From the IMG/VR virus record IMGVR_UViG_3300029288_000115, positions 32,163 through 96,162 of that record: 64,000 nt of DNA; one strand, 5' to 3'. Position numbers and translations under genes: made by a program. A model generated the notes under the pieces. That model did no database searches. It saw only the letters and a program-made list of their open reading frames with translations, and was not told where the DNA came from. Each line of letters begins with the position of its first letter. Position 1 is the stretch's first letter. Positions 30,141 through 62,979 of the stretch are shown in pieces. The DNA comes from a virus (lineage: Duplodnaviria; Caudoviricetes).

Positions 30141-30727
30141 TCTCTACCTCCTGCTAATAACTTAGGATTCACATAAGATTTAAACTTCTTATCACACGTA
30201 GGAATTAATTCAATATCACTGTCTACTTCGTTTCCCCAAGCATCCCAACCTTCTATTTTTTGTCTTGCAAATAATTCTATTCTTGGTTCTAACCGCGTCA
30301 TCTCTATAATTGTTCTAGCATAGTCAGGCTTTTGAGAATGTACTCTAGCCACATCCTTAAAATAATTAGGAATTTGTAAACCAAAAGCCTTAACCTCTCC
30401 TTTCACACCTAACCATAACTCTTCAATCACACCTCTAAACCAAAACCCCATTCCTAATCTACCCATCTTTCTCCAATATATTTTTGTTTTATACGTATAA
30501 CCCCAAGCCTTCATAACCTCCATAGCCTCTTCTTGCATTGGGCATGTTACCCATAGAAATAACACAGAATTATTACTCATAATATTCTGAATTGGTAAAG
30601 ACATAATCTGCTCAAGAGTCATTGTAGAATAACCTAACTCATATTTATGATTATAAGACCATGGGGGATCAGCATAAACCACTTTATATTTCTTATATTT
30701 ATCGACACCATTCTCAGTAACCATCAA
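30137..30727 (-). CDS. MT-A70 family adenine methyltransferase
   Basis: ADPPW, LFLW, AWG, HSQKP, IELFAR, GWDAWGNE. Confidence 0.92.
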   Translation of the reverse strand: MMVTENGVDKYKKYKVVYADPPWSYNHKYELGYSTMTLEQIMSLPIQNIMSNNSVLFLWVTCPMQEEAMEVMKAWGYTYKTKIYWRKMGRLGMGFWFRGVIEELWLGVKGEVKAFGLQIPNYFKDVARVHSQKPDYARTIIEMTRLEPRIELFARQKIEGWDAWGNEVDSDIELIPTCDKKFKSYVNPKLLAGGRE

Positions 30728-30856
30728 TATCTTCTACCTCATACTCATTACCACAACGCAAACATTTATAATACGATTCACACTCAAAAATATCTACTAA
30801 CTCTAATTCTCCAGTACAATCTGGGCAATATTTCATTCTACCTCCAAGTTTAAAAC

Positions 30857-31087
30857 CAACCTCGGCGGGATTCGAACCCGCTACGATTTTTTAAGGATGT
30901 CTCGTAACATCTGCTGTCTAGGTCCACTCGAGATTTGCCAATTAAATCTAGTACATTCCTGACCCCAAAGCTGTAAGTCTTATAGCTGTAGATCGCGGCA
31001 TTTCGTTTTGACATACGAAAGAGAAATGTATGCGCTCCATATTTAACATCCCAAATTTTCCACGGTGTTCCCAGCCACCACAAGGTT
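30857..31087 (-). ncRNA. tRNA-like RNA with about 180-nt structured insert in place of the anticodon/variable arms
   Basis: Acceptor AACCUUG/CGAGGUU, U8-G9, D-arm GUG-GCUGGGAA-CAC, T-arm GCGGG-UUCGAAU-CCCGC; no encoded CCA. Confidence 0.7.
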
Positions 31088-31122
31088 AGCAATAACAATA
31101 GAGTTTAGTTTATTTTTATTTG

Positions 31123-31530
31123 CTAATTGCCAATGGGTATCGCTAATCCAGCATAAACGCCATACATCCAAGCATCATTACTATCATCAAAATCTCTTGC
31201 ACCAAAAACCCCACCGCTAGTATATTTCAATAACTGCCAATCAATTCCAAAATATTCCGCAACTTTCTTGGCATCTACAGATAGTCCCAACAAGGGTAAA
31301 GTCTCAGTACTATCACCAATCACGCCAGCCTCTAAACTTAAAACCTTATAAGATACTATTGGTATAGTACCCCCAGCGTAAGTTTTCTCACTGTTAAAGT
31401 CATAAAATATGGCAGCTTTAAGTTCAGTAAAGCCAGTTTCAAGTCGTATCTCTTCACAAAAACCCTTTCCAGAAAAGATACATAAGCCAATCACCATAAC
31501 CAATATCGGTAAATAGACTTTTAACTTCAT
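31123..31530 (-). CDS. Secreted protein, possible small outer-membrane beta-barrel
   Basis: Signal peptide followed by amphipathic Gly/aromatic beta strands. Confidence 0.5.
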   Translation of the reverse strand: MKLKVYLPILVMVIGLCIFSGKGFCEEIRLETGFTELKAAIFYDFNSEKTYAGGTIPIVSYKVLSLEAGVIGDSTETLPLLGLSVDAKKVAEYFGIDWQLLKYTSGGVFGARDFDDSNDAWMYGVYAGLAIPIGN

Positions 31531-31931
31531 AACTAATCACCTCCTTCTTGGTATATTTTTAACTTTCCAATTATATTTTCGTAACAAAGCTAAACCGTCA
31601 TTATTAACACTATAACCTTTCTCTAAAAGTTGAATTACAAGACTTAATTGCTTTCTACCTAAGATAATTAACTGAATTGCGTTTGAATATAAATTCTTCT
31701 TTGCTATATTTAACATCCATAAAATCGTAGTCTTCATATTAATTATCAAATTTCTCTAGGGGTCTCGGCATACCCCTATGTTGTATTTTTACCACCAAAC
31801 GTTATGGTATACAATTTGCCCTTCCTCTATCATATCTTTCACGAGATTTGATATGAACCGGCCCTCTTTAATTATCTAAAAATAGTACAAACTAAAGTCC
31901 CATCCGTTGATTTCCCTCTACCAAGCTTTAT

Positions 31932-32414
31932 CTACTTCTTCTTGACACTATGTACTACCGCAATGTGCCCATTGGGTAAAGATACTAAATAATGCAAATG
32001 CCTAAGCGCCTCTAAGCTATGAATGTCCTGTCCTTTTACCACACCAATTACTCCCTTGTAAAATCCCTCTTCCGTTATAATAACTTCATCATTGTATCTT
32101 ATACTCTCTCTTGGAATAACAACAGACGACTTATCGTTTTTTCGTTCTAAGTCTGTTTTTATAGCGAGATCCCTGTAATTTCGCCCTGTTACTATAAGGT
32201 CAACCACGGTATTCGAAAATAATAAAGCTCGTATAGTATTCCAATCAAAATCAAACCCTTGTCCTTTATTATCTAACACGTTTACAATAAGCATATCCTG
32301 TGTTTTATTCACCACAACACATAAATGCCATAAGAAAGGTTTTCCAATTCCTTCGAGATAAATTTCTACTTCATCCCCAATTCTCATAACCTCAAGATAC
32401 TCTTTAAGTTTCAT
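31932..32414 (-). CDS. Hypothetical protein (possible KOW/SH3-like C-terminus)
   Basis: DEVIITEEGFYKGVIGVV motif. Confidence 0.5.
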   Translation of the reverse strand: MKLKEYLEVMRIGDEVEIYLEGIGKPFLWHLCVVVNKTQDMLIVNVLDNKGQGFDFDWNTIRALLFSNTVVDLIVTGRNYRDLAIKTDLERKNDKSSVVIPRESIRYNDEVIITEEGFYKGVIGVVKGQDIHSLEALRHLHYLVSLPNGHIAVVHSVKKK

Positions 32415-32625
32415 TTCTTTGCTCCCTTTGTATCTCCCTTTTCAAACGCCTTTAAGATTGCATTAAAATTTTTACGAAGTTTCTTATCATCCATAATGCC
32501 CTGATATTCAAAGTGATGGGGCAATCTAATTTTCTTATGTGTTATATTCTCAACCACTTTAGCCAAACCATATAAGAGTTCATTCATAAACTTTGATGGT
32601 ATCATGTCATAAGTCCCCTCTCTAA

Positions 32626-33042
32626 CTACTTAAACTCAAAATGTCCTGGGTCAAAAGGTACTTTCCAACTACCCCCCCAAATATTTCCACGCCTAATCCA
32701 CTCTTCTCCAAGGGCTTTATATGGGGCTTCATGGTATTCTAAAATTCTTTTTCCAGATACGTAATATAAATCAAAAGCCTTCCCAAGAGGGTGCTTTGCC
32801 TGTTTGCCCCTTACCGTAGTCCGCTTAGATCCTTCTTCAAATAATCCATCTTGCTTAGCGTTACTTCTTATAAAATCGCCAAGAACCAATTGCCACTTAG
32901 AATACTTTATTCGACTCCAAATAATCAACGACATAGCATCAAGTTGCCGCTCAATACCACTCAAAGTTAAAATTTTCTCTAATTCTTTTGGTAATATATA
33001 TTTAAAAATCTTATCAATAAAAATTGCAAAAATTTTATCCAC
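32626..33042 (-). CDS. M15-family peptidase, probable endolysin
   Basis: R...Q, KHPLGKAFD, WGGSW, DPGHFE. Confidence 0.85.
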   Translation of the reverse strand: MDKIFAIFIDKIFKYILPKELEKILTLSGIERQLDAMSLIIWSRIKYSKWQLVLGDFIRSNAKQDGLFEEGSKRTTVRGKQAKHPLGKAFDLYYVSGKRILEYHEAPYKALGEEWIRRGNIWGGSWKVPFDPGHFEFK

Positions 33043-34186
33043 TTATCTCTATCCTCTCTATCTTATCTGAATCTGGATTAAAACTCATCAATATTTGTGA
33101 CAAATCCAGTATCTTTCCAATCCTCATCGCAAAATCTTTCGCATTAGCACAAGTTATAACCTGATTCTTATATGTAAAGTAATATCCATTAGCCATATGA
33201 TCTAAACAAGTTATAACTAAAAACTTTCTTCTTATATGTCTAATATGATAGTCTTTCTTCATAGCATATTCTAATAATGAAACATCAAGCAAGGCTCGTC
33301 TAAATTCTCCCTGTCGTGTATTATCTTTGTTCGTCTCTTCTGGGTCAAAAACAATATTGAGAGGCAAACATCGATTAGACATAAACCCATTACCATGCCG
33401 AGTCTGATAGGCCCTAGTTACTAAAAATAAATCCATATCCCCAGAACCTAATAATTCAATAGCATTTTTACAACCAGTATCGGACCGGGTCACATTAGGA
33501 AAAAATCCAAAATGTTGATCTAATAATAAACCCTGCGACCCTTCAAATATATAACTATCAAACTTAGGTAAACCTAATACCAACCTCACCCAATCCGCAT
33601 TTTTTAATAGATCACAACAAGCCAAAAATTCTTTTCGTGTTTCCAGAGTAATAAAACAAGCGCTATCATAGTAATCATTAATAGCCTTCAACTTAACTGA
33701 AAAAATTTCTGGATAAAATAAATCCAAAACAGTTAAAGAATAAAAACCCTCTTCCCGTTCAATTGTCGTTCCAAAACCAACACCACAACTTCCATGTTCA
33801 AACTTCGATTCATTCCTACAATTCTGTAATTTATCGGCGGGGGTGGTTATTGGGCAACGCTCATCTAAATATAACGTGGGCTCAATACCTTTCTCTTTTA
33901 GTATTCGAAATTCCTTAATCAAACCAACAGGATCAACAGTACAATACTTCGACCAATACGTAGGTCTTCCTCTTAAAGTTCCTGACCCAAAATTGGCGAA
34001 AATATGCCTTAGATCTTTTATAACAACAGTATGTCCACACTGATGTCCACCACTAAATCGAACAACTAAAGGATTCAGATTTCTGGCGATAGGAACTGTA
34101 TGAGCTAAATAATCTACTACCATTCCCTTACCTTCATCACCAAATCCAAGACCGATCACCATCGTATTAGAATGATATTGTGTCAC
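33035..34186 (-). CDS. Adenylosuccinate synthetase-like protein (divergent PurA family)
   Basis: GLGFGDEGKG, RFSGGHQCGHT, GSCGVG, FEGSQGLLLD, TRHGNG. Confidence 0.85.
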   Translation of the reverse strand: MTQYHSNTMVIGLGFGDEGKGMVVDYLAHTVPIARNLNPLVVRFSGGHQCGHTVVIKDLRHIFANFGSGTLRGRPTYWSKYCTVDPVGLIKEFRILKEKGIEPTLYLDERCPITTPADKLQNCRNESKFEHGSCGVGFGTTIEREEGFYSLTVLDLFYPEIFSVKLKAINDYYDSACFITLETRKEFLACCDLLKNADWVRLVLGLPKFDSYIFEGSQGLLLDQHFGFFPNVTRSDTGCKNAIELLGSGDMDLFLVTRAYQTRHGNGFMSNRCLPLNIVFDPEETNKDNTRQGEFRRALLDVSLLEYAMKKDYHIRHIRRKFLVITCLDHMANGYYFTYKNQVITCANAKDFAMRIGKILDLSQILMSFNPDSDKIERIEISG

Positions 34187-34191
34187 AGCTT

Positions 34192-34458
34192 TTATACCTC
34201 TAAGAAATAACGCTTTGTTTTAGTTTTCTTATCAATTCCATATTCTACTAATATTTTCCAAGATGTAGATAAATGACTTATTATGGCTTTAGTGTATCTT
34301 TTACGAGCATTATTATGTAAAGTCACGTTACTCGTTCCTCGCACCCCATTAGTAGGTATATCATATTTAAACTGTACCGTCTTTAATACCTTATTTAAGT
34401 CTTCTTCGCTCGTTATGCCAATAATCATTTTTTTCTTCTTATGCAAAGAGTTTTCCAT
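34192..34458 (-). CDS. Hypothetical basic protein
   Basis: ORF with AAGGAG RBS. Confidence 0.45.
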   Translation of the reverse strand: MENSLHKKKKMIIGITSEEDLNKVLKTVQFKYDIPTNGVRGTSNVTLHNNARKRYTKAIISHLSTSWKILVEYGIDKKTKTKRYFLEV

Positions 34459-34564
34459 ATCATCATTCTCCTTATATTATTGTAGAAGCTTCACTCTGGT
34501 TTCCTTCCATAATCAAGAAACCAAACTGTACATCGAATATTAGAGCGCGTCAGAGCAGCTTTAT

Positions 34565-35398
34565 TTACAAAATAACTTCGGCTTCCGTCGGATTTTCAGG
34601 AGACAACCTGCTCTTAATTGTCTCAGTTATAATTCTCGACACATCATCATAATGCTGAGCAACTAATAAATTATCACCAAGCAACTGTCTCCAAGTATCA
34701 AAAACCACCGCTCTAGCTCCAGAACCGGTTTGCTGAATATTTATATGAAATACATTAAAAGTCTTCCGAGCAAGATCCAATAGTATACTGGCATTAACGG
34801 TTTCATGTAGCCCCACTCCCATAATCTTTTCAAGATTAGAGTTCGGAAGTTCTTTTAATGGAGGTTCATCTCCAATAGTAAACAAAAACCCCTTCTGATT
34901 CCTTTTCTCAAAGCAATCAAGAGCCGTATGCTTTGCTGCAAAATACCAAGCAAGTAGATAACTTTCGCCATAATTTCCACCACCCCCACCCTCTAAATAA
35001 ACCTCAGTTAACCACTTATCCAACAACTCATCACTAGATTCAAACTGTGCAACCTGCAAAGGTGCTCTATCACATTCATGATCCCCTATACCCATAAACA
35101 AAATCTGTGGGTCTTTAATTCCAATCTTCATTATTCCTTCCATAATATTAGGTAATCCATCCTTAACTAAATGATGAGGTACTGAGCCCATCGAACCTGT
35201 AACATCCAAAGCAATAATTATCGCCAAACTGTTTGGGTGCTCTTTTGAATCTCTTGACTCTCTAATTTTTATGCCAAAAGGATTCATGCCATTATTAATA
35301 CTTCTTTGAGCAAAAACCTCCGAAGTAGCTTTTGCATCATAGCCTAAGGTTTCTCGACGTGCCGAATGGCTCGTAACCGAATATATCCCATATCCCAT
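34565..35398 (-). CDS. vWA-domain protein
   Basis: MIDAS motif LDVTGSM, GIGD, EGGGGGN..ESY, TIGDE. Confidence 0.85.
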   Translation of the reverse strand: MGYGIYSVTSHSARRETLGYDAKATSEVFAQRSINNGMNPFGIKIRESRDSKEHPNSLAIIIALDVTGSMGSVPHHLVKDGLPNIMEGIMKIGIKDPQILFMGIGDHECDRAPLQVAQFESSDELLDKWLTEVYLEGGGGGNYGESYLLAWYFAAKHTALDCFEKRNQKGFLFTIGDEPPLKELPNSNLEKIMGVGLHETVNASILLDLARKTFNVFHINIQQTGSGARAVVFDTWRQLLGDNLLVAQHYDDVSRIITETIKSRLSPENPTEAEVIL

Positions 35399-35778
35399 TA
35401 TTTACCCCCAAAAAGATAAGCGTATCTTTTCTTAGCAATTTCAAGTTTGATTTCACTGTTTCGTATCTGAATGCCTAATTCAAGGTCTTTATCTGTATAT
35501 TGTCTAGAATCAAACTTATCAGCAACAATTAAACTTAGAGCATTATCAGGAGATAAATCTAACATATTTTCTTGCTGTCTCAACATTCTTTTAATACTAA
35601 TTTCTAAATCTTCAATGGTTCTTTTATAGGTTATCTCAGCCTCCTCTCCAATTGCTTGCGCCCTATCCTCTCTAATTTGCTTATTGTTTCTCTTTAAAGA
35701 AGACAAAAAAGCACCAGTAATAGACTGTTCTTGTTCTGCTTCATGATCCGGACTTTCTTTCTTTTTTTCTTCCGCCAT
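35398..35778 (-). CDS. Coiled-coil protein coupled to the vWA gene
   Basis: TAATG overlap with vWA start; heptad-like sequence. Confidence 0.6.
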   Translation of the reverse strand: MAEEKKKESPDHEAEQEQSITGAFLSSLKRNNKQIREDRAQAIGEEAEITYKRTIEDLEISIKRMLRQQENMLDLSPDNALSLIVADKFDSRQYTDKDLELGIQIRNSEIKLEIAKKRYAYLFGGK

Positions 35779-35822
35779 AACTGCCTCCTTTTTGTAATTG
35801 GTTTAAATGTTCTCATTAAAAG

Positions 35823-35988
35823 AGGGCTCTGAGGGATTCGAACCCTGTTCGACCTATGGCTTTTTATTTTGTTATTCCTATCCCATTATTTATGGTCTTG
35901 GATAGTCAATTACTGTTAAGAAAATAGGAGTTTATCCCTATTTTGAAACAGATATTAGCGCCAGCGTTCCCAGCTGCCACAGAGCCCC
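35823..35988 (-). ncRNA. Second tRNA-like RNA with about 115-nt structured insert
   Basis: Acceptor GGGCUCUG/CAGAGCCC (8 bp), UG, D-loop GCUGGGAAC, T-arm AGGG-UUCGAAU-CCCU (4 bp); no CCA. Confidence 0.7.
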
Positions 35989-36075
35989 TTCATTTCAACT
36001 TATTATAAGCCCGTCTCAAGCCGCAGTTATATAACCATCCCAATATCCCTACCAAAGATTTCTTTTTCATAGTTA

Positions 36076-37071
36076 CTAATCAGTTATAACAATCTCCTCT
36101 GGTTCTGCTGTACCCGAATGCTTTGGTGCAAAGCATATGGGACAACGAGAATCTTTATCATATTGAATAATACTATCACCAACTTCCAATAATCGATAAC
36201 GACCCGAACCCAAAGTTTTATTTGCTTCCAGAGTTAAATCAGCCACTACATCAAACCAATCAAGCTCTTTTAAATCTATTCTTTCTGCCCAAGATTTCCA
36301 AAACTTTTTCAAAAGACTTTCCGAATACTTCGAACCAAGAGCCATAGCAATCTCTCTGACTGCATTTACTCTTTTTCCAACTTTACCTTGAAGCCAAGTT
36401 ATCATTCCCAAACCAGACTCTAACAATTTTTGATCTCGTAAAAAATCAAAATTGTCACTATCCCAAAGTCTTAATGGTTGAATCAAACCATTTGTACATT
36501 TTAAACGATTAATTCCCACAGCAAATTTTACTTTATCTCCTAAAGAAATAAATAATCCAGGATCAATAAAGTCCCCAACTTTAACCTCCTTCCTTAAAGA
36601 TTCCACCAAAAGTTGAAGCTCCAAATGCCAATTATCACTACCAATAACCACAGACTTAAATAATGAACTTGCTTCAGAAAGCCTTGCTTCCTTAACAACT
36701 CTTTCCAACGATACTGGGGCCTTCTCAGGGTCCAAATAAATTCTACTCCTTAACGTTAGCCATTCCCCAGAAGTACTTTCGTCCTTAATTGCATCAAAAG
36801 TCATGACAGAACCTTCTTTATGAGCATAGTACTTTCTAAGCGCGCATTGTAAATCTTTTACCTCATTCGTTTCCAAAAGCATCCGACCATAGTCGCCTAA
36901 AGGGCCTATCATCTTTCTGGTGTCAAATATAAAATTAATATCATCTACCTCTCTAGAACTTTTAAAATCTTCAGAAATATGTAAATCCTCAATAAGATCT
37001 ACCATCTCAATTACATGAGATCGAACATTTTTCTCTAAACTTTTTCCTTCCAGTCTTAACCACTTAACCAT
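36076..37071 (-). CDS. DUF932-like protein
   Basis: GINRLKCTNGLI motif. Confidence 0.5.
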   Translation of the reverse strand: MVKWLRLEGKSLEKNVRSHVIEMVDLIEDLHISEDFKSSREVDDINFIFDTRKMIGPLGDYGRMLLETNEVKDLQCALRKYYAHKEGSVMTFDAIKDESTSGEWLTLRSRIYLDPEKAPVSLERVVKEARLSEASSLFKSVVIGSDNWHLELQLLVESLRKEVKVGDFIDPGLFISLGDKVKFAVGINRLKCTNGLIQPLRLWDSDNFDFLRDQKLLESGLGMITWLQGKVGKRVNAVREIAMALGSKYSESLLKKFWKSWAERIDLKELDWFDVVADLTLEANKTLGSGRYRLLEVGDSIIQYDKDSRCPICFAPKHSGTAEPEEIVITD

Positions 37072-62019: not shown

Positions 62020-62979
62020 CTATCCTTCCTCATTGGGAACCTCCTTCTTAAAACTATTGTCTAATAGTTTTTCTTTATACCATTCAGGAAAACCCGCAAC
62101 CGCTTTTCTTAAAAGCCCGTCTTTAAAACAACTCCAGAGAAAATTCTTGATTTCTTCTTTTTCTTCCTCCTCAATATCTTTTCTAATAGCAATAAGAAGT
62201 TTCCCTATATCTTTGGGGGCATTCTCAAGTTCACCATTATCTCTTAAATGCTGAATTGATTTTAACCAGCGGGCTTCGGTTCTGTAACTTTCGATAAACA
62301 ACTCCCACTTGCCTTTATCGGTATGTTCTTTCCCCCAATTAGTTTTATGCTTTTCTTTAAATTTTTCCGAAACAAATTTACCCGCCATAAGCGGAATCGG
62401 TTGCCCCCCTAATAAAAATGGACGGGAATAATTTTTTACTACAAACCCCTCAATTTTAGTTCCACCTAAAACACTTTCGGTTTCTAATAAACTTAACAAA
62501 CTTATCTTGTCTTCAACTCGCCCCTTAAACAATAGAGGCACAACCTCAACATCAACCATTTTTGCAAAGCTGGTTAAATTATAATATTCAGATATAAAAG
62601 TCCCACCTTCGCTTGAAACACCAAAAAGAATAAGGTTGTTTGTCGGAGTTCTTTTGTATGCCAAAACGTTATGTCTGGGCGACTTAAGATATTCACAATA
62701 AAAAACTGTATTATTAGGAATTTTTTCTTTAATAGACAAAACATAATCAACCGCCAGAGAAAACATTTTATCTGGTGCGTCAGCAATAATTTCTTTCCCC
62801 TTACTTCGCATATACAATTCCCCATTAACCTTTCCAAAAACAAACTGACTTCCATCTATCTTTTCTGTTATTTCTACATCCTCATTAAAAAGGTCTCTAA
62901 TATAGTCTGTCCCTACCGTAAAAATCTTTGGAAATGCGTGTATCATCACTCCCCCTTCCCCAGCAGGCGAGTGCGGCAC
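62020..62979 (-). CDS. RNA ligase (Rnl2-like nucleotidyltransferase), likely start MIHAF
   Basis: TEKIDGS, E, F, VVP, EGFVVK, K motifs. Confidence 0.75.
   Translation of the reverse strand: MPHSPAGEGGVMIHAFPKIFTVGTDYIRDLFNEDVEITEKIDGSQFVFGKVNGELYMRSKGKEIIADAPDKMFSLAVDYVLSIKEKIPNNTVFYCEYLKSPRHNVLAYKRTPTNNLILFGVSSEGGTFISEYYNLTSFAKMVDVEVVPLLFKGRVEDKISLLSLLETESVLGGTKIEGFVVKNYSRPFLLGGQPIPLMAGKFVSEKFKEKHKTNWGKEHTDKGKWELFIESYRTEARWLKSIQHLRDNGELENAPKDIGKLLIAIRKDIEEEEKEEIKNFLWSCFKDGLLRKAVAGFPEWYKEKLLDNSFKKEVPNEEG

Follow-up and report, generated by a model that had tools for sequence, protein, structure and literature searches.

Two tRNA-shaped RNA genes with unrelated middles in an uncultured T4-like phage

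Introduction

Bacteriophage T4 encodes within its tRNA cluster a 139-nucleotide (nt) RNA, rnaC or species 1 RNA, which the T4 record annotates as a 'small, stable RNA'. Northern blots have confirmed this late-expressed RNA, for which no function is known (PMC9697503, PMC3014915). rnaC is the closest known RNA to two elements described here, W1 and W2, which lie on the minus strand of an uncultured T4-like phage within a 64,000-nt stretch of DNA (the window; bases 32163-96162 of the 96,162-base IMG/VR virus record IMGVR_UViG_3300029288_000115, estimated to be 67% complete). Each has the acceptor stem, D-arm and T-arm of a tRNA, here called the shell, and a long middle where the anticodon arm would be expected.

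Four described systems other than rnaC share parts of this design. In transfer-messenger RNA (tmRNA), as in W1 and W2, the ends form an acceptor stem and T-arm with a large insert between them, and tmRNA is a known substrate of RNase P. It differs in having a G3:U70 pair, a tag reading frame, pseudoknots and a need for SmpB, all four of which are absent from W1 and W2, and in lacking the D-stem that both possess. The engineered tRNA scaffold of Ponchon and Dardel needs no more than the acceptor, T- and D-arms for the cell's tRNA machinery to process and protect inserts of up to ~250 nt (PMC3753655). As in W1 and W2, all three arms are kept and a structured insert replaces the anticodon stem-loop; the scaffold, however, is man-made, and its insert is closed by a retained anticodon stem of which none is evident in W1 or W2.

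The YrlA-type Y RNAs, which also occur in phages, are non-coding and have tRNA-like D- and T-arms and an acceptor-like stem (PMC4201824). Some are cleaved by RNase P and given CCA, and YrlA of M. smegmatis, a non-tRNA whose acceptor stem has 7 base pairs (bp), is a substrate for both RNase P and the CCA enzyme (PMC4201824). Their topology is nonetheless permuted with respect to W1 and W2, in that YrlA ends in a Ro-binding helix and its 'acceptor' is a closed hairpin; YrlA genes also adjoin a Ro60 (TROVE) gene, whereas none was found in this 96-kilobase (kb) record. Finally, W2 shares with the allo-tRNAs and other 8/4 tRNAs, which likewise occur in phages, an 8-bp acceptor and 4-bp T-stem forming a 12-bp stack (PMC5389517). 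Allo-tRNAs retain an anticodon arm and decode, while W2 has no such arm.

Results

A shared shell without decoding features

Both RNAs have a D-arm built around CUGGGAAC and the canonical T-arm GGGUUCGAAUCCC, and the 9-mer GCUGGGAAC is common to the two D-arms (Table 1). The tRNA-type features present are an acceptor/T stack of 7/5 (W1) or 8/4 (W2), a T-loop of the form UUCRANY and a D-loop GG. A first-pass annotation made from the letters alone had described two such RNAs, and direct reading bears out their coordinates and motifs, their acceptor stems, which differ in sequence yet pair fully (7 bp in W1, 8 bp in W2, with compensatory changes), and the unrelated sequence of about 180 and 115 nt between D- and T-arm. 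Its assignment of 8/4 geometry to W2 also holds, the 7/5 alternative having a C.C mismatch and a G instead of U at position 8. As it had further claimed, the anticodon arm and an encoded CCA are absent from both RNAs, and so is a G3:U70 pair, the third acceptor pair being C3-G70 in W1 and G3-C70 in W2.

One of the seven acceptor pairs of W1 is a G.U, and the stem is extendable into the flanks through U.G, C-G and G.U; in W2 a ninth pair, G35988.U35823, is possible. The connector between acceptor and D-arm is U8 G9 in W1 and UG(G) in W2. The D-stem of W1 can also be drawn as GGUG / GCUGGGAA / CACC, and its register is thus ambiguous.

The two shells are not a product of chance. GGTTCGAATCC occurs exactly twice in the 64 kb, once in each RNA, where 0.41 occurrences are expected even with one mismatch allowed. 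Our own structural scanner, which seeks a T-arm, a full acceptor and a D-arm with GG, gave two matches in the 96-kb genome against a mean of 0.13 in 200 first-order Markov simulations, four of which reached at least two; this comparison leaves aside the 9-mer and 13-mer identities shared by W1 and W2. Double compensatory changes between the copies number four in the acceptor and one each in T- and D-stem; relative to W1, the D-arm of W2 has a single compensatory change as well. The six compensated pairs are the signature of selection on the three shell helices.

The same design in T4 rnaC

We aligned six Tevenvirinae rnaC genes, three from Karamvirus phages and one each from T4, T2 and PaulHMueller. 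The ends of the consensus fold form a stem of 7 positions (CGA..CG/CG..UCG), where A-U to G-C compensation is seen; it is stacked directly on the T-arm (7/5), in which one pair appears as G-C, U-A and A-U. In the middle, a 3-bp helix (AGG/CCU) closes a long hairpin and a second hairpin follows. Ten pairs show compensatory changes across the six phages. In Enterobacter phage EnC15 the rnaC homologue (L125 39-192), which lies between tRNA-Trp and tRNA-Gly, has the long first hairpin swapped for unrelated sequence, with the shell and second hairpin retained. The covarying shell and this replacement together indicate that rnaC, too, is a shell derived from a tRNA, in which the middle can be exchanged.

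W1 and W2 have the architecture of rnaC: the T-arm, with the core GGUUCGAAUCC common to all three, stacks on a terminal stem, hairpins (two in rnaC) stand in place of the anticodon arm and no CCA is encoded. An A-rich stretch lies upstream of the T-arm, CCUUUUAAAAAU in T4 and CCUUAAAAAAU in W1, although in T4 the second hairpin intervenes. Unlike W1 and W2, rnaC has no GG-loop D-arm, its terminal stem includes two U.U mismatches, and it sits inside a tRNA cluster, whereas W1 and W2 are solitary in a record without a tRNA. A covariance model of rnaC scores 13.8 bits on W1 (rough E 0.015), through an internal, non-equivalent 5' strand, the CCUU-A-rich stretch and the T-arm, and 6.2 bits on W2 through the T-arm alone. 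On these scores membership of the rnaC sequence family was rejected for both, the resemblance being one of design only.

An alternative form of W1 may be drawn from an internal AGCUUUG (window 30966-30972, minus strand), which can pair with the 3' acceptor strand through seven pairs, three of them G.U, to give a 115-nt RNA without the D-arm. It is this form that the rnaC covariance model picks.

Recurrence in other phages

The architecture recurs in phages that share with this one a three-gene module (126-amino-acid protein, vWA-like protein and PurA-like protein, described below). These carry many elements of 100-270 nt with a complete tRNA shell and unrelated middles, which supports the view of the first-pass annotation that tRNA-derived shells lacking a decoding arm are a recurring phage architecture. 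Long shell elements number 23 in 0.92 Mb of module-sharing phages against two in a reversed-sequence control, a few of the 23 being artefacts that bridge two tRNAs. One locus, L019, holds four in tandem with unrelated middles, and in an all-against-all comparison of 15 long elements similarity is confined to the shells. Several of the related-phage elements have a leucine-type D-arm, so that the shell of W1 and W2 represents a different type.

A cultured example is found in Vibrio phage Va1 (L118, MK387337.2:3613-3786), where an unannotated, tRNA-shaped element of 174 nt begins nine bases past tRNA-Cys. It is 97.7-100% identical across six cultured Vibrio phages, and all four differences lie outside predicted stems, at loop or unpaired positions. 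On the strand opposite this element, phage pv27 has a 'hypothetical protein' annotation that runs across it.

ARAGORN also reports unusual tRNA-type genes in related phages (L011 3487-3864 and 4146-4216; L013 13293-13365 and 19495-19869). They comprise a tRNA-Leu(UAA) with a 291-nt intron in L011, a tmRNA with the tag GNYAYSFAY in L013 and, within the same set, a tRNA call with a four-base anticodon (aatt) and a suppressor-type tRNA with a CUA anticodon.

The middles

The 180-nt middle of W1 and the 115-nt middle of W2 have no mutual similarity. Folded whole and compared with shuffles, W2 has z -3.84 and W1 z -1.1. No complementarity of at least 13 nt was found between either middle and the phage genome, and a protein-binding or decoy role is therefore more likely than an antisense one. 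A decoy for anticodon nucleases, as the first-pass annotation had suggested, is unlikely because there is no anticodon loop.

Each middle has a match to a nearby gene. Positions 35872-35892 in the W2 middle resemble 35384-35404 in sense orientation, the stop/start junction of the 126-amino-acid and vWA-like genes (UAAAUAAUGGGAUA), with 14 exact and 19 of 21 overall (empirical chance ~0.02 within 650 nt). In W1, 31039-31051 is an exact 13-mer with 31706-31718, in the 5' part of the open reading frame (ORF) 31537-31749 (empirical chance ~0.06 within 650 nt). These matches could be mimicry of translation-start regions or local duplication.

An 82-codon open frame (window 30850-31098, minus strand) with a TTG start and no ribosome-binding site spans all of W1 and stops just past the acceptor. 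Shuffling of W1 gives p ~0.02 for such a frame; its product belongs to no PHROG family, and tblastn against the fetched loci gave no homologue.

Comparison with known RNA classes

ARAGORN at its defaults finds no ordinary tRNA in the entire 96-kb record, and its tmRNA mode returns nothing there, at the default or at a lowered threshold. At gathering scores no Rfam family matches the window; at E<=10 the region 30700-36200 yields chance-level matches alone, none to an intron or ribozyme family and none to the W1 middle. Models of group I and II introns, tmRNA and YrlA give no match to W1 or W2, the sole relevant signal being a 17-nt local match of the tmRNA model RF00023 to the W1 T-arm (15.8 bits, where the gathering score is 47). 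ARAGORN, with introns and tmRNA on, and Rfam, two of the checks that the first-pass annotation had named, offer no tmRNA, group I intron or other Rfam explanation.

A tmRNA identity was rejected on the lack of G3:U70, of a tag frame and of an ARAGORN call and on the RF00023 score, far below gathering. A YrlA or Y RNA identity was rejected since the topology differs, PF05731 was not found in the 96-kb record and Rfam gave no match. For W2 the 8/4 stem lengths agree with an allo-tRNA, but that identity was rejected for want of an anticodon arm.

Genomic setting

W1 and W2 lie in short intergenic gaps of a co-directional minus-strand gene array. W1 begins 35 nt past the preceding ORF and stops 22 nt ahead of the next; the corresponding distances for W2 are 88 and 45 nt. 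An RNA ligase claimed in the first-pass annotation is indeed encoded and is of Rnl2 type (Table 1). Genes for TROVE/Ro60 (PF05731), SmpB and a CCA-adding enzyme were sought in the 96-kb record, 67% complete, and none was found.

The three-gene module occupies window positions 33035-35778 on the minus strand. It encodes the 126-amino-acid protein, a 277-amino-acid vWA/MIDAS-like protein (DVTGSMG motif, phrog_2971) and a 383-amino-acid adenylosuccinate-synthetase homologue (PF00709; phrog_1211, PurZ family; PurA/PurZ-like). This gene order is kept in ~100 viral and metagenomic loci. The vWA-like gene also lies beside an annotated adenylosuccinate synthase in cultured Vibrio phage Va1 and Rhizobium phage RHph_Y65, and its product also matches Mycobacterium cluster C phages.

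Identical DNA was found in a landfill and a groundwater metagenome. Among the sequencing runs listed for the phage none is of RNA; the two DNA runs containing it, one from each site, show zero differences within W1 and W2 and so yield no covariation. In 50,697 phage records blastn found no match to the 5.5-kb region. Pattern scans of IMG/VR with the D-loop 9-mer and T-loop 11-mer at two spacings yielded nothing but ordinary tRNAs paired by chance with the 9-mer, and neither the W1 nor the W2 3' end was found in IMG/VR as an exact match. By synteny, there is no W2 counterpart upstream of the module in eight relatives, nor beside relatives (37% and 32% identity) of the 331-amino-acid gene that lies upstream of W2. 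A scan of JGI metagenomes with the vWA-like protein gave 80 loci, none above 66% identity and none with an orthologue of either RNA.

In the two phages with a relative of the 331-amino-acid gene (L120 4955-5500 and L121 4790-5300), that gene is followed by a small basic ORF, and motifs repeated within it resemble, judged by eye only, homing-endonuclease DNA-binding modules. The W2 site may be a hotspot for inserted genes.

Table 1. Coordinates of W1, W2 and associated features. Positions refer to the window unless a locus (L number) is named.
Feature	Position	Strand	Description	Basis
W1	31087..30857	minus	tRNA-shaped RNA gene, 231 nt (230 nt + discriminator G)	direct reading, own scanner
W1 acceptor, 5' strand	31081-31087	minus	AACCUUG; full pairing with 30858-30864 CGAGGUU	
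W1 D-arm	31062-31078	minus	GUGG / CUGGGAACA / CCGU	direct reading, ARAGORN
W1 middle	30882-31061	minus	180 nt; irregular long helix, GAUGU/ACAUC hairpin, A-rich linker CCUUAAAAAAU ahead of T-arm	constrained fold
W1 T-arm	30865-30881	minus	GCGGG-UUCGAAU-CCCGC; 7/5 geometry	direct reading
W1 acceptor, 3' strand	30858-30864	minus	CGAGGUU, then discriminator G (30857), then GUUUUAA; CCA absent	direct reading
W2	35988..35823	minus	tRNA-shaped RNA gene, 164 nt + G(-1) + discriminator U	direct reading, own scanner
W2 acceptor, 5' strand	35980-35987	minus	GGGCUCUG, 8 bp; full pairing with 35824-35831 CAGAGCCC	
W2 D-arm	35962-35976	minus	CAGC / UGGGAAC / GCUG	direct reading
W2 middle	35847-35961	minus	115 nt; interrupted 14-bp hairpin (CUGUU..AAAAUAGGG / UCCUAUUUU..AACAG), CUAUCC/GGAUAG hairpin, A-rich linker	folds
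W2 T-arm	35832-35846	minus	AGGG-UUCGAAU-CCCU; 4-bp stem, 8/4 geometry	direct reading
W2 acceptor, 3' strand	35824-35831	minus	CAGAGCCC, then U, then CUUUUAA; CCA absent	direct reading
Rnl2-type RNA ligase	62428-62880	minus	PF09414, 49 bits; within 320-amino-acid open frame	
Long tRNA-shell elements	L003 12782-13006; also L006, L008, L013, L015, L017, L020, L075, L084			own scanner

Discussion

We put at about an even chance the reading that W1 and W2 encode free-standing non-coding RNAs, stable and processed in the manner of tRNAs. In such a model, W1 and W2 would be transcribed together with the surrounding minus-strand genes. Host RNase P would recognise the 12-bp acceptor/T stack and the elbow made by the D-loop and T-loop and cut the 5' end, and the 3' end would be matured by a CCA-less route, through RNase Z or exonucleases, probably followed by CCA addition. 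The products would be discrete, nuclease-resistant RNAs of ~230 nt (W1) and ~165 nt (W2). The shell would serve as a processing and stability chassis, a role that the engineered tRNA scaffold fulfils in E. coli; the stable T4 rnaC has a comparable acceptor/T domain. Specific activity would reside in the middle, most likely as protein binding or titration rather than decoding or base-pairing.

Several points weigh against this model. Its steps from transcription onward, with discrete ends, processing, stability and any activity of the middles, are inferred. The D-loop is without a canonical A14, which puts the U8-A14 contact in doubt. A point in favour, that ARAGORN at its defaults calls both shells tRNA in all 16 constructs given a synthetic anticodon arm, is tempered by the leniency of this test, as 66% of controls with a shuffled D-region are also accepted. 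The hairpins quoted in the first-pass annotation do exist in the middles, but in stability the W1 middle does not exceed its shuffles (z +0.5), and the W2 middle, taken alone, does so mildly (z -1.9; 8 of 200 shuffles). As no orthologue of W1 or W2 was found in IMG/VR, JGI metagenomes or the phage records searched, the middles have no covariation support. The idea of a shell with a variable insert is borne out, while that of a functional payload is not supported, the W1 middle folding at chance level and orthologues being absent from these searches. A strong ribosome-binding site lies 22-45 nt downstream of both RNAs, with which a purely cis-acting role fits too, and a search for promoters and terminators gave none that was conspicuous (32 promoter-like sites against 25.8 in shuffles).

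The last two points lead to the alternative that the fold works only within a polycistronic mRNA, as punctuation or as a stabiliser, and that any excised RNA has no function of its own. In one variant it would be a cleavage signal for RNase P or RNase Z that splits upstream from downstream messages, in another a protective end structure. The position of both RNAs in short gaps of the co-directional array, the GGAGG site on each downstream ORF and the want of a convincing promoter or terminator of their own are as expected for such a role, and RNase P is known to cleave mRNAs and operon transcripts (PMC11143913). For punctuation, however, a minimal acceptor/T minihelix would do, and a D-arm and an extra 115-180 nt would be superfluous. 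Moreover, the equivalents in L019, Va1, T4 rnaC and EnC15 sit in tRNA arrays or adjoin tRNAs or each other rather than marking operon junctions, and T4 rnaC accumulates as a stable RNA. On balance we regard a purely cis-acting role as rather improbable.

It is less probable that W1 and W2 are functional tRNAs with an undescribed intron that either splices itself out or is excised by proteins, such as a nuclease together with the phage RNA ligase. In favour of this, group I introns occur in related-phage tRNAs, as in the tRNA-Leu(UAA) of L011, and one long element of L013 gives a canonical CUUACAA loop if ~26 nt are removed. The Rnl2-type ligase could supply the joining step. With introns allowed, ARAGORN reports W1 at its default threshold as a forced 'tRNA-Ala(agc) + 137-nt intron', a model that depends on a mismatched stem of A-U pairs only and leaves a 21-nt variable region unpaired; it fits W2 solely at a lowered threshold, with a model that consumes the D-stem. 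Against such a reading, no stem of 5 bp with a 7-nt U33/R37 loop exists in either RNA at the positions fixed by the D- and T-arms, the implied introns of 90-137 nt are below the size of known group I introns, and the relaxed Rfam search (E<=10) brought up neither intron nor ribozyme models. The unknown intron type proposed in the first-pass annotation accordingly finds little support.

A slightly more doubtful proposal is that W1 and W2 are decaying tRNA pseudogenes, their middles disrupted by insertions and no longer selected. The failure to find orthologues, the thermodynamically unremarkable W1 middle and the homologue-less 82-codon frame through W1 are what drifting sequence might give. 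The shells, however, are flawless, with every acceptor pair formed, a canonical T-loop and six compensated pairs between the copies, and there is no trace of an anticodon arm; decay would not spare precisely three shell helices twice, nor would it account for an architecture that recurs in many phages. That W1 and W2 are minimal tmRNA-like molecules entering stalled ribosomes is very improbable: the connectivity of an acceptor/T domain with a large insert between D region and T-arm matches, the Rfam tmRNA model touches the W1 T-arm and the related phage L013 has a true tmRNA, but G3:U70 and any plausible tag frame with the typical hydrophobic tail are missing, ARAGORN and Rfam give no tmRNA call, a true D-stem is present, the lengths of 165-231 nt fall under usual tmRNA sizes and no SmpB gene was found in the record.

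Beyond W1 and W2 as stable, tRNA-processed RNAs, a broader and more tentative possibility is that large phages use the upper body of tRNA as a generic expression chassis in which unrelated modules are swapped like cassettes. W1, W2, T4 RNA C, the Va1 element and the metagenomic examples might then form one class, with middles that bind or titrate host or phage proteins, for instance through mimicry of a translation start, as the 19 of 21 match of W2 to the start of the vWA-like gene may hint. To our knowledge, the function of T4 RNA C has remained unknown since the 1970s. Cultured systems in which to pursue the question are Vibrio phages Va1 and pv27, and T4 rnaC with its EnC15 variant.

If the design is widespread in large phages, it would point to an unrecognised class of regulatory or decoy RNAs. 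Such tRNA-shell RNAs would be missed by standard tRNA finders and by Rfam, and would provide a natural precedent for tRNA-scaffold technology. What the window contributes is a shell of non-leucine type with a full D-arm, in a phage record without an ordinary tRNA. W1 and W2 are real, unusual and invisible to standard annotation.

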